Made by a program: the position numbers and the translations under genes. Under the pieces are notes generated by a model. It was not told where the DNA came from and made no database searches. It worked only from the letters and a program-made list of their open reading frames with translations. Shown here piece by piece: positions 27,780-46,417 of a stretch of DNA of 64,000 nucleotides (its first letter is position 1; the number at the start of each line of letters is the position of its first letter). The stretch comes from Eledone cirrhosa. Its lineage: Eukaryota. The stretch covers positions 25,358,001-25,422,000 of the forward strand of contig OZ024756.1 of assembly GCA_964016885.1 (NCBI GenBank), read 5' to 3'.

Positions 27780-27894
27780 TCGGTTCAAATCCCGCCAATG
27801 TTGACTTTGCCTTTCATCCTTACGGGGTCGATAAAATAAAGTACCAGTAATGCGCTGGGTATTTGCTGGCCTTGTGCCTAAAGTAGAAACAATT
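27780..27894 (+). mobile_element. Family-1 SINE 3' half abutting the truncated Helitron helicase
   Basis: GTTCAAATCCCGCC...GGCCTTGTGCCTAAAGTAGAAACAATT. Confidence 0.85.
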
Positions 27895-30095
27895 ATCTAC
27901 TGTATCAGAGCTTCTGTAGATTATTTCATGACTAGGGAACTTGTTGACCATGAACTCATTCACCAATCTTCCTGCATCATTTGTTGGAGTGATAATGGCT
28001 CTATTTGCAAGCCATGGTGGGTTTATGTAGTTTCCTGGAAGATATGTATACACAAAATCACACAGTCCAGACACATTACCATATTCCAGACAAAGTTCAT
28101 TTGGCAGAAGAATTGTGAATGCACCTACAGTTGGAACAGTTGGAATGTTACCATTTCCCACATCAAGAAGGTAGTTTGCAAACTGTCTTTCATCAGAATC
28201 CTCTGCATTAATTAACCGTTGATTGGTTGTCATCTCCATGGTTTCTACATAGTCCCAGAGATAGGATCTCTTGATGGTTGCCTCAACTATTTGTGGTCTA
28301 GCACCATGACGTACAACTGGAAGAATTTTCTTCCAGTCACCAGATTGTAATACTGTTAGACCACCAAATGGCTTTTTGCAATCTCGAACATCTTTGAAGC
28401 TCCTGTCAAGGCATTCAAAGATATGCTTATGTCCCATACCTATCTCATGAATGATTAGCAGGTCAGCTTGCTGCATATGTTTACTTGTGTCATCCCTCTT
28501 TGTGAAGAAGCAAGTTGATTCAGCAGTCACATTGAGAGGAATCTTGCACTTGGAATGAAGAGTTCTACCTTTGTGAAGCAAAGTGGCTGCTATTCCAGAT
28601 ATGGCAGCGGCAAGTGAAATTTTTTTTTTAGATCGGAGGTAATCCAATAGGATGTTTATGACATAGGTCTTTCCTGCACCTGCACTTGCATTCAAGCAGA
28701 AAATTCTGCCTTCATTTTCATTTACAGAGGTGATTACTTTGTGAAAAATAACCAGTTGCTCAGGATTCAATGTTGGCAGAAGTTCATTTATATTTGCTTG
28801 CAGTTGGTGTGTATTGAAACCAGTTTCTGCCACACGAACCCTGTTGATTTCTGGTATGGCAACAATAGTTGGGTCTGGCCGAGGCAGTCCATAGTTGGTA
28901 TGAATGTTCAAGCCATCATGTTGAAGTCTTTGTTGGATCTTCTGTAGAACAATCTGCTCGGTTTGCATGGACATGACTTGCTCACGACGTTCATGCATGA
29001 TATCCTCTGCAAGACAATTCTTCCATTTCTCCCAGAACTGCAGAGGGTCATTTGGAATGCAGTACAATAAAATGGTGCAGAAGATCTCTCGCAGCTGAGA
29101 ACCAAGCGTATGGATGAGGCCTCTTCCATAGCTTTGTCTTTTTCTCCATCTTCATCTAACAGACCAAGTTTCCTGCATGCTTCTTGGAATGTTGGAAATT
29201 CAACTCCTTCAATTGTCCTCAAATCTGTGTATGAAGTTGACCCAACCTTGTGATGTAGGATCATTCTGAGGTAATGTAATTCAGATTGATGTCTACTGGA
29301 ATGCGTCTAAGAGATTCACCCATAAATTGTTGATCACCATCCAGATGTCCCTTTTTTCTTCTTTGCCACTTTTTGTTTGTCCAAGTGAAATATTTAGGAA
29401 TATCAATATACAATATGTTTGTGCCAGTGGATCTCTAATATTCAGTTGAAAATATTCCGTCAACTTAGTCATTGGTTGTCCTCTATAAACAACACTTTCT
29501 TCCTGCCCTCGCTCAGACACGACCATTTGTTTCCCAGGTAAATGGCAAGGCAACTTTTCAACTGGCGGTTTTCGATGATGTAATGGAAATTTATAGATTC
29601 TCCAGTATGCTTCACTGGCTGAGGTGTACCGCGGATTGATATAGGTCTCAATCTCATTTTGGGCATGGACACAATTTCCTTGATCATCCTTAATAGTGAA
29701 AGTTATCTTTTCTGATCCTTTTGTGATGTACTTATATAAGTACTTAACAGCCTTGACACTGTGGACAACCTCACAATTGATGTGGCACTGATATCTCAAT
29801 GAGAGAAAAGGGTTGTATGGAACAATCCAACGATTATCAACAGTAAATTCTTGACCTTTAAGTTGTCTCTCCCTTCTTCTATACTCGGGAAAGGAATTTT
29901 CGGCAACAAATGTGGTTTGTCTGAATGCATTGGGATAACGTTTTGAGCAATGGCGTTGTTGTCCTAGCCCTTCCATACATGAGCACATCATATTAGCTTG
30001 TCCACATTAGCCATGAATGTTGCAGGATGTGATGATCGTATGCAGAATTGGATTGGTCTCTTTATCAGGAATCTCACAGTACACTACCTGATCAA

Positions 30096-34165: not shown

Positions 34166-34277
<112 letters not shown>

Positions 34278-34415
34278 AAGGTTAAACAAGGTTCAATGAA
34301 TAAATCAAAGAATGGGTTTTACAATAGATTGGAAGCACTCAACAGTAATGGTTTTCCGGAGTTATTAATATTAATTCGAAATATTAACAAAAATAGACAT
34401 TCGTGTGATCAAGTA

Positions 34416-34482
34416 TATTTTATTATACATATTTCAGAGGTACTGAGGTAACTTCAACAGTACGTCCTCATCAGATAAAATA
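34416..34482 (-). ncRNA. Type I hammerhead ribozyme inside a short TA-inserted element (about 34275-34600)
   Basis: Minus strand: TATTTTAT CTGATGA GGACGTACTG..CAGTACCTCT GAAA TATGTA TA ATAAAATA; perfect 8-bp stem I, intact core, paired stem II. Confidence 0.75.
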
Positions 34483-34612
34483 AGATGATGCATGACATAC
34501 CCTGACATAGTCATGGTAGTGACTACCATGACTGAATCTTAACCATCTACTTGATCACACGAATGTCTATTTTTGTTAATATTTCGAATTAATATTATAT
34601 ATATATATATAT

Positions 34613-34719
34613 ATAGGAACAAGTATGACCCCGACGGCAGAGCTCAAGCCGTTTCGACGGCTATTTCTGGACTATTTCTGCGTTATGGTCCATCTGGTTC
34701 CTTACCACAATTCCTTCGT

Positions 34720-34721
<2 letters not shown>
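34613..34721 (+). mobile_element. Internally deleted family-F element directly left of the 310-bp array
   Basis: Left arm GACCCCGACGGCAGAGCTCAAGCCGTTTCGACGG joined to tail TGCGTTATGGTCCATCTGGTTCCTTACCAC. Confidence 0.75.
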
Positions 34722-34750
<29 letters not shown>

Positions 34751-34907
34751 TGGAATAAATGCTCTGAAATAGCGATATATATATGAATATAGACATAGAA
34801 TATTCGAAAATATTCTGTATGTTTATAATAAACATTTTGAAGACCTAATCGCTATAGAATAGAATACGTCACGTATTACAATTAGATTCTCGATAAAAGC
34901 AAGGGAA

Positions 34908-34950
34908 GTAATCTACGCGTTTCATTCTTGTTAGAATTCATCAGGACTAC
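34908..34950 (-). ncRNA. Type I hammerhead ribozyme, first of 8 minus-strand copies (period 310)
   Basis: Reverse complement reads GTAGTC CTGATGA ATTCT-AACA-AGAAT GAAA CGCG TA GATTAC. Confidence 0.85.
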
Positions 34951-37156
34951 ATATCCAGTGCTTTTATCGAGAATGACACAGCTAGAGACTTATAGAATAC
35001 TTAGCTGTGTACAGGAACTGGTTTGAAAGAGCGGTTGCCGGTCCGGCAGAAATTAGAAATTGGAATAAATGCTCTGAAATAGCGATATATATATGAATAT
35101 AGACATAGAATATTCGAAAATATTCTGTATGTTTATAATAAACATTTTGAAGACCTAATCGCTATAGAATAGAATACGTCACGTATTACAATTAGATTCT
35201 CGATAAAAGCAAGGGAAGTAATCTACGCGTTTCATTCTTGTTAGAATTCATCAGGACTACATATCCAGTGCTTTTATCGAGAATGACACAGCTAGAGACT
35301 TATAGAATACTTAGCTGTGTACAGGAACTGGTTTGAAAGAGCGGTTGCCGGTCCGGCAGAAATTAGAAATTGGAATAAATGCTCTGAAATAGCGATATAT
35401 ATATGAATATAGACATAGAATATTCGAAAATATTCTGTATGTTTATAATAAACATTTTGAAGACCTAATCGCTATAGAATAGAATACGTCACGTATTACA
35501 ATTAGATTCTCGATAAAAGCAAGGGAAGTAATCTACGCGTTTCATTCTTGTTAGAATTCATCAGGACTACATATCCAGTGCTTTTATCGAGAATGACACA
35601 GCTAGAGACTTATAGAATACTTAGCTGTGTACAGGAACTGGTTTGAAAGAGCGGTTGCCGGTCCGGCAGAAATTAGAAATTGGAATAAATGCTCTGAAAT
35701 AGCGATATATATATGAATATAGACATAGAATATTCGAAAATATTCTGTATGTTTATAATAAACATTTTGAAGACCTAATCGCTATAGAATAGAATACGTC
35801 ACGTATTACAATTAGATTCTCGATAAAAGCAAGGGAAGTAATCTACGCGTTTCATTCTTGTTAGAATTCATCAGGACTACATATCCAGTGCTTTTATCGA
35901 GAATGACACAGCTAGAGACTTATAGAATACTTAGCTGTGTACAGGAACTGGTTTGAAAGAGCGGTTGCCGGTCCGGCAGAAATTAGAAATTGGAATAAAT
36001 GCTCTGAAATAGCGATATATATATGAATATAGACATAGAATATTCGAAAATATTCTGTATGTTTATAATAAACATTTTGAAGACCTAATCGCTATAGAAT
36101 AGAATACGTCACGTATTACAATTAGATTCTCGATAAAAGCAAGGGAAGTAATCTACGCGTTTCATTCTTGTTAGAATTCATCAGGACTACATATCCAGTG
36201 CTTTTATCGAGAATGACACAGCTAGAGACTTATAGAATACTTAGCTGTGTACAGGAACTGGTTTGAAAGAGCGGTTGCCGGTCCGGCAGAAATTAGAAAT
36301 TGGAATAAATGCTCTGAAATAGCGATATATATATGAATATAGACATAGAATATTCGAAAATATTCTGTATGTTTATAATAAACATTTTGAAGACCTAATC
36401 GCTATAGAATAGAATACGTCACGTATTACAATTAGATTCTCGATAAAAGCAAGGGAAGTAATCTACGCGTTTCATTCTTGTTAGAATTCATCAGGACTAC
36501 ATATCCAGTGCTTTTATCGAGAATGACACAGCTAGAGACTTATAGAATACTTAGCTGTGTACAGGAACTGGTTTGAAAGAGCGGTTGCCGGTCCGGCAGA
36601 AATTAGAAATTGGAATAAATGCTCTGAAATAGCGATATATATATGAATATAGACATAGAATATTCGAAAATATTCTGTATGTTTATAATAAACATTTTGA
36701 AGACCTAATCGCTATAGAATAGAATACGTCACGTATTACAATTAGATTCTCGATAAAAGCAAGGGAAGTAATCTACGCGTTTCATTCTTGTTAGAATTCA
36801 TCAGGACTACATATCCAGTGCTTTTATCGAGAATGACACAGCTAGAGACTTATAGAATACTTAGCTGTGTACAGGAACTGGTTTGAAAGAGCGGTTGCCG
36901 GTCCGGCAGAAATTAGAAATTGGAATAAATGCTCTGAAATAGCGATATATATATGAATATAGACATAGAATATTCGAAAATATTCTGTATGTTTATAATA
37001 AACATTTTGAAGACCTAATCGCTATAGAATAGAATACGTCACGTATTACAATTAGATTCTCGATAAAAGCAAGGGAAGTAATCTACGCGTTTCATTCTTG
37101 TTAGAATTCATCAGGACTACATATCCAGTGTCATTCTCGATAAAAGCACTGGATAT

Positions 37157-37199
37157 GTAGTCCTGATGAATTCTAACAAGAATGAAACGCGTAGATTAC
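37157..37199 (+). ncRNA. Type I hammerhead ribozyme, first of 4 plus-strand copies (also at 37467, 37777 and 38087)
   Basis: Stem I GTAGTC/GATTAC, core CTGATGA 37163-37169, stem II ATTCT/AGAAT, GAAA 37184-37187, palindromic stem III ACGCGT, predicted cleavage after GUA at 37193; stem I extends by a perfect 16-bp helix 37133-37148/37206-37221. Confidence 0.88.
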
Positions 37200-38249
37200 T
37201 TCCCTTGCTTTTATCGAGAATCTAATTGTAATACGTGACGTATTCTATTCTATAGCGATTAGGTCTTCAAAATGTTTATTATAAACATACAGAATATTTT
37301 CGAATATTCTATGTCTATATTCATATATATATCGCTATTTCAGAGCATTTATTCCAATTTCTAATTTCTGCCGGACCGGCAACCGCTCTTTCAAACCAGT
37401 TCCTGTACACAGCTAAGTATTCTATAAGTCTCTAGCTGTGTCATTCTCGATAAAAGCACTGGATATGTAGTCCTGATGAATTCTAACAAGAATGAAACGC
37501 GTAGATTACTTCCCTTGCTTTTATCGAGAATCTAATTGTAATACGTGACGTATTCTATTCTATAGCGATTAGGTCTTCAAAATGTTTATTATAAACATAC
37601 AGAATATTTTCGAATATTCTATGTCTATATTCATATATATATCGCTATTTCAGAGCATTTATTCCAATTTCTAATTTCTGCCGGACCGGCAACCGCTCTT
37701 TCAAACCAGTTCCTGTACACAGCTAAGTATTCTATAAGTCTCTAGCTGTGTCATTCTCGATAAAAGCACTGGATATGTAGTCCTGATGAATTCTAACAAG
37801 AATGAAACGCGTAGATTACTTCCCTTGCTTTTATCGAGAATCTAATTGTAATACGTGACGTATTCTATTCTATAGCGATTAGGTCTTCAAAATGTTTATT
37901 ATAAACATACAGAATATTTTCGAATATTCTATGTCTATATTCATATATATATCGCTATTTCAGAGCATTTATTCCAATTTCTAATTTCTGCCGGACCGGC
38001 AACCGCTCTTTCAAACCAGTTCCTGTACACAGCTAAGTATTCTATAAGTCTCTAGCTGTGTCATTCTCGATAAAAGCACTGGATATGTAGTCCTGATGAA
38101 TTCTAACAAGAATGAAACGCGTAGATTACTTCCCTTGCTTTTATCGAGAATCTAATTGTAATACGTGACGTATTCTATTCTATAGCGATTAGGTCTTCAA
38201 AATGTTTATTATAAACATACAGAATATTTTCGAATATTCTATGTCTATA

Positions 38250-38290
<41 letters not shown>

Positions 38291-38359
38291 GAAAGGTATA
38301 GAAAGTATTGTAGCAAGAAGCCAACAGTATTCCATAATATATATATATATATAACGAAG

Positions 38360-44976: not shown

Positions 44977-45661
44977 GATGGCGGTCCATCGACATGATAA
45001 TGTTTCATCTATTGGCCACAAGGGCCGACATATAGGAGACAATACAATAGACGGGGACAGTGGGGGGTTTTATATACGAATCGAGTAAAAAATAAGAAAA
45101 CAATAACAATAAAGAAGAAAAATACAACAATGAAAAATTCCTTAATAGGGGGTGTGAGTGGGGTTCCATCGACATGATAATGAAATAGAATTCGAGCACA
45201 ATATTTTACTGGGCCGGATTACAGAAGACTCGGATGATTTCATTGTGGATGTCCTCTATTTCACCCCTTGTGTCATTCGCTGAGAGAAGAATATGAATTG
45301 TTCGGGAGAGAGAGGAGGTGAGTTGGGGGAGGGAGAGAGTGGGAGGGGAGAGGGAGATAAATATATATCTAATAACAACTCTTTTGACCTTAGATATATT
45401 AAAAGCTAGAGTAACAAAACATTGCCCAACTAATTTCAGAATATTAATGGCAAACGGCCCTTGTTTCTTCTTCTTGAAAAACCTCATCCAGCAACACGCT
45501 GAATCTCTCTGAGATTTGCGTTAAGAGTGCCCATGTCTGTGGAATGCTCAGGCACTTGCACGTTGACTTCAAGAGCAGACTATTCCATTGTGCCAATAAC
45601 AACTGGGGCACTCAGGTCCAGTACTCACACAGTTGTTTGTTTGTTTTAAACAACAAATAAT

Positions 45662-46417
45662 TTTCTACTTTCTGGCACAAGGCCAGCAATTACCTAGTAC
45701 ATTACTGGTACTTTATTTTATCGACCCCGTAAGGATGAAATGCAAAGTTGACCTCGGCGGGATTTGAACTCAGAATGGCAAGGGCCGTAACTCTATGCGT
45801 CAAAGCATAACGTCCGACCCTCTAGCGATACTGCCAACCCACCAACAAATAATTGTTTCTACTTTAGGCACAAGGCCAGCAAATACCCAGTGCATTACTG
45901 GTACTTTATTTTATCGACCCCGTAAGGATGAAAGGCAAAGTCAACCTCGGCGGGATTTGAACTCAGATCGTAAAGGGATGTAACTATGCTGGAAAGCATG
46001 GCGTCCGACCCTCTACCGATACTGCCAACAAATAATTGTTTCTACTTTAGGCACAAGGCCAGCAATTACCCAGTGCATTACTGGTACTTTATTTTATCGA
46101 CCCCGTAAGGATGAAAGGCAAAGTCAACCTCGGCGGGATTTGAACTCAGATCGTAAAGGGACGTAACTATGCTGGAAAGCATGGCGTCCGACCCTCTACC
46201 GATACTGCCAAATGATTTCTAGTATAGGCACAAGGCCAGTAATTTGGAGGAAGGCGAAAGTCGATTAAATCGACCTCAGTACGTTACTGGTACTTTATTT
46301 TATCGACCCCGTAAGGATGAAAGGCAAAGTTAACCTTTGAACTCAGACCGTAAAGGGTCGTAACTCTGAGGCAAAGCATGGTGCCCGACGCTCTAACGAT
46401 ACTGCCAATCCACCGCC
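45662..46417 (-). mobile_element. Stack of four head-to-tail family-1 SINEs
   Basis: Copies at about 45662, 45855, 46037 and 46213; outer 22-bp direct repeat TTTGTTTTAAACAACAAATAAT at 45640-45661 and 46418-46439. Confidence 0.9.

Follow-up and report, generated by a model that had tools for sequence, protein, structure and literature searches.

Why should a short tandem repeat be made up of inverted repeats, and does selection act on the fold of an RNA copied from it? The question is raised by a 310-nt unit (positions 37131-37440, + strand, 34% GC) within a 64,000-nt stretch of DNA from Eledone cirrhosa (assembly GCA_964016885.1, contig OZ024756.1, positions 25,358,001 to 25,422,000; the whole stretch is hereafter 'the window'), which belongs to a 3.0 Gb, AT-rich and microsatellite-rich genome. 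A preliminary description of this DNA had proposed that the whole monomer is built from hairpins and that selection maintains them at the RNA level, as in viroid-like or retrozyme RNAs. Our answer is that copies of the unit conserve base pairing, that the RNA-structure reading largely holds, and that the repeat is, on the predicted features set out below, the unit of a young non-long-terminal-repeat (non-LTR) retrozyme devoid of open reading frames (ORFs). Furthermore, we consider it likely that a self-cut and ligated RNA circle is reverse-transcribed in rolling-circle fashion by a Penelope-type enzyme, from both ends of a DNA cut, and that the retrozyme is thereby inserted as two arms in TA repeats.

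The strongest evidence for conserved pairing is comparative. Two older sister families, B (321 nt) and C (315 nt), which are 63% and 68% identical to the family of the window, were traced in the genome from diverged matches adjoining some loci, and the structure of the window unit was laid over 13 real copies (3, 6 and 4 from the three families). Across the families 85% of the cells were paired, and 22 of the 66 pairs had changed on both sides (15.4 +/- 2.2 in shuffles; at most 6 when the structure was slid); these are the compensatory changes among paralogues that the preliminary description had named as a check on its reading. RNAalifold, run unaided, returned 18 of 52 pairs changed on both sides. 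As the comparison covers three related lineages, with the structure taken from one of them, these figures are to be read as counts and not as probabilities. Moreover, among the 43 supported pairs G-U cells outnumber A-C cells by 35 to 5, on which ground we take the + strand to be the one that folds. The fold predicted for the 310-nt circle comprises the following elements:

37133-37148 with 37206-37221 (span 37133..37221), + strand: 16-bp stem extending hammerhead stem I, the strongest helix, with recurrent A>G sites
37157..37199, + strand: type I hammerhead (stem I 37157-37162/37194-37199; CUGAUGA 37163-37169; stem II 37170-37183; GAAA 37184-37187)
37230..37244, + strand: hairpin of 6 bp with a 3-nt loop (UGA)
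37251/37331-37338, around 37291-37310, + strand: enclosing helix
37272..37288, + strand: hairpin of 6 bp, conserved across families
37291..37310, + strand: tetraloop hairpin of 8 bp with a UUCG loop, directly upstream of the near end site of the insertions
37369..37381, + strand: hairpin of 5 bp with a GAC loop
37407..37441, + strand: hairpin of 9 bp (pair probability 0.98), specific to the window family, in which three A>G sites retain pairing

The changes on both sides are unevenly distributed among these helices (long stem 9/16, stem I 3/6, stem II 3/4, tetraloop stem 2/8, 37272 hairpin 1/6). In the 37369 hairpin variation is confined to one side, one C-G being U-G in both sisters. Column by column, three helices are unsupported: the 37230 hairpin (58% of cells paired, with a different hairpin at the same place in B and C), the enclosing 37251/37331 helix (49% paired, with a shifted alignment) and the 37407 hairpin, for which B and C have a replacement and which the 66-pair count leaves out. 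The four inverted repeats of the preliminary description all lie where it had placed them, on the ribozyme-sense (+) strand, and two of the four hairpins are supported across families; the two loops that it had drawn with a single nucleotide fold instead as the UGA and GAC loops. Its UUCG-loop hairpin is present as well, closed by U-A and not by the C-G pair of the extra-stable cUUCGg tetraloop, and in the sister families the loop is GCAA or GCCA.

The minimum free energy of the circle (-68.3 kcal/mol) lies well below that of 300 dinucleotide shuffles (-47.5 +/- 4.5; z -4.6; 0/300 as low), as the structural reading would predict. The minus strand folds equally well (z -4.7), z-scores of -3.6 or lower were reached by 2 of 14 random 310-nt stretches from the window, and the paired fraction (57%) is as ordinary as that of the shuffles (55 +/- 4%). 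The view that the whole monomer is built from hairpins was overstated, since the signal comes mainly from the hammerhead and the 16-bp stem, the latter missing, like the conserved 37272 hairpin, from the hairpins first listed: the 89-nt part that holds these two has a z of -7.3, and the other 221 nt a z of -2.5 (1/150 shuffles). Taken alone, the folding energy is weak and suggestive only, and the claim rests on the comparative evidence.

The complete hammerhead motif (core, stems I and II, GUA site) is present in every identical unit. Its stem III is reduced to one pair with a palindromic CGCG loop, and the cut is predicted after 37193 (GUA); two copies of the CGCG-capped stem III segment pair with each other at -9.5 kcal/mol. 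In sister family B, the C3 and G8 of the core are replaced by U3 and A8. The same two bases, or other departures from the usual core, also occur in the hammerhead-like cores of the Penelope-like families L154, L134, L166 and L156. At L170, some 1250-1400 nt beyond a GIY-YIG frame, lies a short element with two arms, nearly equal to the majority form in its hammerhead core and stem II and with different flanks, a possible fourth family. Six more CTGAnGA...GAAA motifs occur in the window (40114 and 54310 on the + strand; 51300, 26838, 17196 and 16497 on the - strand) and possibly mark other hammerhead families.

The unit under study is the first + strand unit of an insertion made of two head-to-head arms of 310-nt units, joined 5' to 5' and embedded in (TA)n. 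With unit positions numbered from the predicted hammerhead cut, its parts are:

34720..34747, no strand: (TA)n target, left side
34747..37130, - strand: left arm, 7.7 identical 310-nt units, whose sense strand ends 3' at unit position 167, the far (long) fixed site
37128..37130, no strand: 5'-to-5' inversion junction with a 3-nt overlap (GTG)
37128..38262, + strand: right arm, 3.7 identical units of the same haplotype as the left arm, whose sense strand ends 3' at the near (short) fixed site
37324..37360, + strand: 'tail' of ~35 nt separating the two fixed 3' ends (putative reverse-transcription start sites)
38253..38287, no strand: (TA)n target, right side

TA homology blurs the 3' end of the right arm, which falls at about position 130 or as far along as 139, and both ends of the insertion run into (TA)n, where a target-site duplication is unreadable. 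Within 34747-38262 there is no ORF of at least 150 aa, and the insertion contains no ORF combining reverse transcriptase (RT) and GIY-YIG.

Counted by exact patterns, one 43-nt hammerhead string occurs 2,528 times in the genome, and the long end, in which position 165-167 adjoins TA, occurs 1,246 times, which is a lower bound on the number of insertions. We assembled a first set of 104 insertions (the window, 9 loci found by the hammerhead string and 93 regions found by the long end, one of them with two insertions), from which one region had been dropped as the remainder of another, and a second set of 60 further insertions. In 84/104 and 44/60, together 128 of 164, there are two arms, of which one ends at ~130 and its partner at 165-167 (at 154 in one case); the remaining layouts (first and second set, respectively) were insertions whose two arms reach beyond the sequence retrieved (8 and 7), two-armed insertions that end elsewhere (0 and 3) and insertions with a single arm seen (12 and 6). 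Selection by the hammerhead string alone, regardless of ends, gave 9 loci, 8 of them two-armed, and families B and C share the two end sites, ~35 nt apart.

The two arms of an insertion agree closely: variants spanning one arm recur in the partner arm in 174 of 178 cases in the first set and 116 of 122 in the second (290/300 together; the second-set exceptions are mostly a matter of indel placement), and 148 loci resolve into 56 haplotypes. Changes confined to a single unit amount to ~0.1% (222 in 276,291 bases and 170 in 172,890, respectively), and a few variants are common to 2-3 units of one arm. Arms average 4.3 units (maximum 20.4), with at least 2 units in 137/176; some are shorter than one unit while the partner arm is multimeric. 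The inner arm ends are not clustered at the ribozyme cut (4/182 within 5 nt, 5.9 expected). Taken together, the agreement of arms and units indicates that each insertion probably derives from a single monomer template. As a separate observation, the haplotype switches part-way along an arm at L063, L089, L126, L297 and L311, which suggests template switching between RNA molecules.

We used the single-unit changes as a neutral control for substitutions fixed across a locus, counting as a 'break' any change that broke a confident stem or altered the core. Breaks made up 1/35 fixed against 41/157 single-unit changes in the first set (p 0.0013) and 2/34 against 30/104 in the second (p 0.005), and 2/55 against 71/261 when pooled (p 3.5e-5; p 0.02 without A>G), one of the two fixed breaks being 287A>U, at the base of stem II and the commonest variant. 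The 12 core positions bear no fixed change (10/261 among single-unit changes). Fixed and single-unit changes did not differ in their mean effect on folding energy (p 0.30). The sparing of stems by fixed changes and the pairing conserved among families both support what the preliminary description had supposed, namely a retrozyme-like selection on RNA structure.

The fixed changes are furthermore rich in sense-strand A>G (27/55, against 14/261 single-unit changes), with an A>G:T>C ratio of 27:8, against 14:39 for single-unit changes (p 3.5e-6). One locus, L284 (G000:C1:380304900-380310500; 287-2680), has 14 sense-strand A>G that all units of its two arms share and, beyond the common background, no other change. 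Leaving out the sites found at L284 only, the ratio is 15:8 (p 0.002 against single-unit changes), 10 of the 15 A>G lie in confident stems (p 0.005), and several A>G sites recur on different haplotypes. As inosine is read as G, these changes are presumably the work of ADAR. The neighbour preference of ADAR is not evident in the 27 sites. The A>G excess indicates an edited RNA stage in the presumed life cycle, and the L284 molecule may have been edited within a long duplex, e.g. one formed by read-through of an inverted locus.

A search of the genome for GIY-YIG domains yielded several Penelope-like families that have RT and GIY-YIG frames, carry hammerhead-like motifs and terminate in (TA)n; none is clearly homologous to the retrozyme unit. 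Among them, family L156 is a candidate driver of the retrozyme: its RT and GIY-YIG frame is unbroken over 1096 codons (1024 if counted from the likely start), the family is young (29/30 ends within 1% of the consensus, one at 2.8%; RT matches reaching 100%), and its copies form inverted arms with two end sites that lie 35-38 nt from each other. The last 45 nt of L156 resemble the end of the retrozyme to a degree reached by 1 of 3000 shuffles, against p 0.44-0.93 for four other families. A CxxxxCxxC motif before its GIY-YIG domain fits Neptune or Nematis as these are described in PMC8557442 (here and below, statements taken from cited sources refer to the portions of their text that were accessible), and the named proteins nearest to the driver come from bivalves and from records labelled bivalve symbionts. 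The sole result of BLAST and profile searches for a parent Penelope end, at L135, was an independent sister insertion.

On these grounds the likely course of an insertion would be as follows. Tandem transcripts would self-cleave, probably as hammerhead dimers joined through the palindromic stem III; a host ligase would close the monomer and ADAR would edit the RNA; a Penelope-like RT/GIY-YIG protein would then cut both strands of (TA)n and prime each at one of two internal sites. Each complementary DNA would circle the same template several times, passing through the uncut ribozyme, and the two ends would finally join at a random point, mostly via short microhomology. A bolder version of this proposal, whose chances we regard as evenly poised, is that the insertions are single-molecule recordings of circular RNAs, in which a Penelope dimer primes both cut ends on one circle (up to 20 copies per side), ADAR edits become heritable and drive evolution, and L156 is the matching enzyme; if true, this would be the first reconstitutable retrozyme-RT pair.

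Several observations weigh against the preferred reading as a whole. The circle and the cleavage are predicted from genomic DNA; Rfam HH9 matches with an E of 0.0031 at 23 bits, below the gathering score of 52, so that Rfam at gathering level gives 0 matches; and the commonest variant (287A>U; 65/103 loci) places U-U at the base of stem II. Eight of nine predicted Xenopus retrozymes failed to cleave in tests (bioRxiv 10.64898/2026.07.22.740005, accessible part), and the anole Penelope element is described as inserting RNA both cut and uncut. The long end is given by design in 153 of the 164 insertions, which were selected by it. In the second set without A>G the stems show no protection (2/13 vs 29/100, p 0.51), and the L284 edits favour predicted stems no more than chance would (p 0.56) and hence do not confirm the hairpins. 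As to the driver, the 45-nt match was first spotted by eye, at one of the matched bases the L156 copy is unlike the majority of its family, and neither BLAST nor a three-family profile found homology to Penelope ends beyond the last 45 nt (40 GIY-YIG loci).

A rival reading keeps the Penelope-type insertion and takes as its template a long, uncut, linear multimer transcribed from a homogeneous donor array, with no circle and with the ribozyme as a passenger or rarely active. Donor arrays of up to 20 units do exist, hammerhead mutants of the anole element are reported as still inserting in vitro, and the haplotype switches inside an arm at L063, L089 and L126 would fit such a molecule. Edits or RT errors on a linear multimer would, however, differ from unit to unit, yet L284 repeats its 14 A>G in all units of both arms; the 56 homogeneous haplotypes require repeated passage through one monomer; and the core positions, which are altered among single-unit changes and never among fixed ones, speak in the same direction, so that we hold this explanation to be unlikely. 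A post-insertion tandem amplification model, set out in the accessible part of bioRxiv 10.64898/2026.07.22.740005, would let Penelope-like insertions of about one unit per arm grow afterwards as DNA, through slippage or unequal crossover, in which case the RNA need not be circular. Such expansion would also yield one haplotype per locus, could copy an edited monomer and would account for the few variants common to 2-3 units of an arm. Both arms would nevertheless have to grow separately at most loci within ~0.1% divergence (137/176 arms have at least 2 units), single-unit changes (222 and 170) far exceed those common to a few units, and several arms of less than one unit stand beside a multimeric partner; we therefore judge it very unlikely.

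That the repeat is an element of DNA altogether (a satellite, an extrachromosomal circle or a Helitron-type rolling circle), its hairpins being DNA features or chance, could draw on the equal folding of both strands, on the z-scores that random stretches of the window can reach and on the PIF1 helicase frame at 27820-29067. It is largely refuted, and scarcely credible to us, in view of the strand-specific A>G excess, the surplus of G-U over A-C (35 to 5), the conserved hammerhead core (including the U3-A8 swap in family B) and the Penelope-type ends. Reverse transcription of a self-cut circle from both ends of a cut remains the reading that we prefer.

Apart from a target-site duplication, unreadable in (TA)n, the element has every sequence-level feature by which non-LTR retrozymes are recognised, and would work like a non-autonomous Penelope element. 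Metazoan non-LTR retrozymes (Cervera and de la Pena 2020, PMC7229834; Li, Clavereau and Pollet, bioRxiv 10.64898/2026.07.22.740005) are described as alike in their tandem units of 150-450 nt, GC below 50%, one type I hammerhead per unit, lack of an ORF-bearing body, self-paired predicted circle and co-occurrence with Penelope-like elements in the same genome. The stem III form resembles that of axolotl HHR_Amex1, which cleaves as a dimer (PMC7229834), and the U-U at the base of stem II that of axolotl HHR_Amex2. The published retrozymes are, in the text accessible to us, direct tandems for which circular RNA and cleavage have been shown, whereas the window family, known from genomic DNA, has head-to-head arms, two fixed ends, one haplotype per insertion and edited copies. 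Newt satellite 2 and axolotl Rtz_331 (PMC7229834) share a unit of ~330 nt and a one-pair stem III with a palindromic tetraloop, efficient only as a dimer, but are unrelated in sequence, and the window family consists of dispersed, young, two-arm insertions.

Endonuclease-positive Penelope-like elements (Craig et al. 2021, PMC8557442; Frangieh et al. 2024, PMC11167929) are likewise reported to have an inverted 5'-truncated copy, AT-rich or (TA)n targets, a hammerhead near the 3' end, a 30-40 bp tail at one end and two internal RT start sites; in the anole element, with its two internal RT start sites, both strands are cut and extended. Unlike them, the window element has no ORF, both its arms are multimers of a short unit, and its homology to Penelope ends is a resemblance over 45 nt only. 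Chlamys elements of the MRC1 type, non-autonomous as well, form multicopy insertions, but the group is described, in the available part of PMC8557442, as being without canonical hammerheads. Viroids and viroid-like satellite RNAs (PMC7761336) resemble the predicted circle in being small, self-paired and hammerhead-bearing; the element differs from them in being genome-encoded, with a ribozyme motif on one strand only and a branched AU-rich fold. Viroids are defined by the lack of a DNA stage, and the element has thousands of genomic copies, with fixed changes biased to one strand; the label 'viroid-like', in the sense of RNA-to-RNA replication, finds no support here, and there is no sign of infectivity either.

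The class of element is already known, and hairpins alone are expected for it. A circular template has been proposed for animal retrozymes, with Penelope-like elements named as candidates (PMC7229834, accessible part), and the mechanism of retrozyme mobilisation is said to remain to be elucidated (bioRxiv 10.64898/2026.07.22.740005, accessible part). To this the family adds genomic evidence for each step of the return to DNA: Penelope ends, a single-monomer template, editing carried into DNA and selection on pairing. We found no account of inverted two-arm retrozyme insertions or of edited genomic retrozyme copies in the literature searched, supplements and most subscription papers lying outside the search. 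Moreover, two start sites and a candidate enzyme can be named, which suit the in vitro assay published in PMC11167929.

Horizontal transfer was considered and set aside. The stretch occurs in 20 runs of 16 studies under many organism codes; none of the runs listed is recorded as RNA, which carries no information about expression. Six of the runs compared (X4, X5, X6, X8, X16 and X18) show one near-identical contig at a depth of 3-34, against more than 100,000 in X1; the raw DNA reads of X23 contain 0. Trace carry-over is a simpler reading of the foreign-organism runs than transfer. Each of the six has one clean contig, four of these being 340 nt long (310 + 30, a closed loop), and five have the 287A form, the less common one in the genome, in which the stem II base is paired; X4 is the rare window haplotype. 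Such single clean contigs could reflect carry-over of an abundant RNA, the kind of library not being on record.

Around the window insertion lie short TA-flanked elements (34274-34720 and 38288-38336), including an inverted-repeat element at ~34275-34600, with ends shared with L168 and L059; the TA tracts there suggest a nested insertion. The PIF1-like helicase frame (27820-29067, - strand; Pfam PF05970, E 6e-64) is probably a piece of a Helitron. At 45651-46211 a unit of 183 nt, similar to short interspersed elements, is repeated three times; its motif may be of octopus type.
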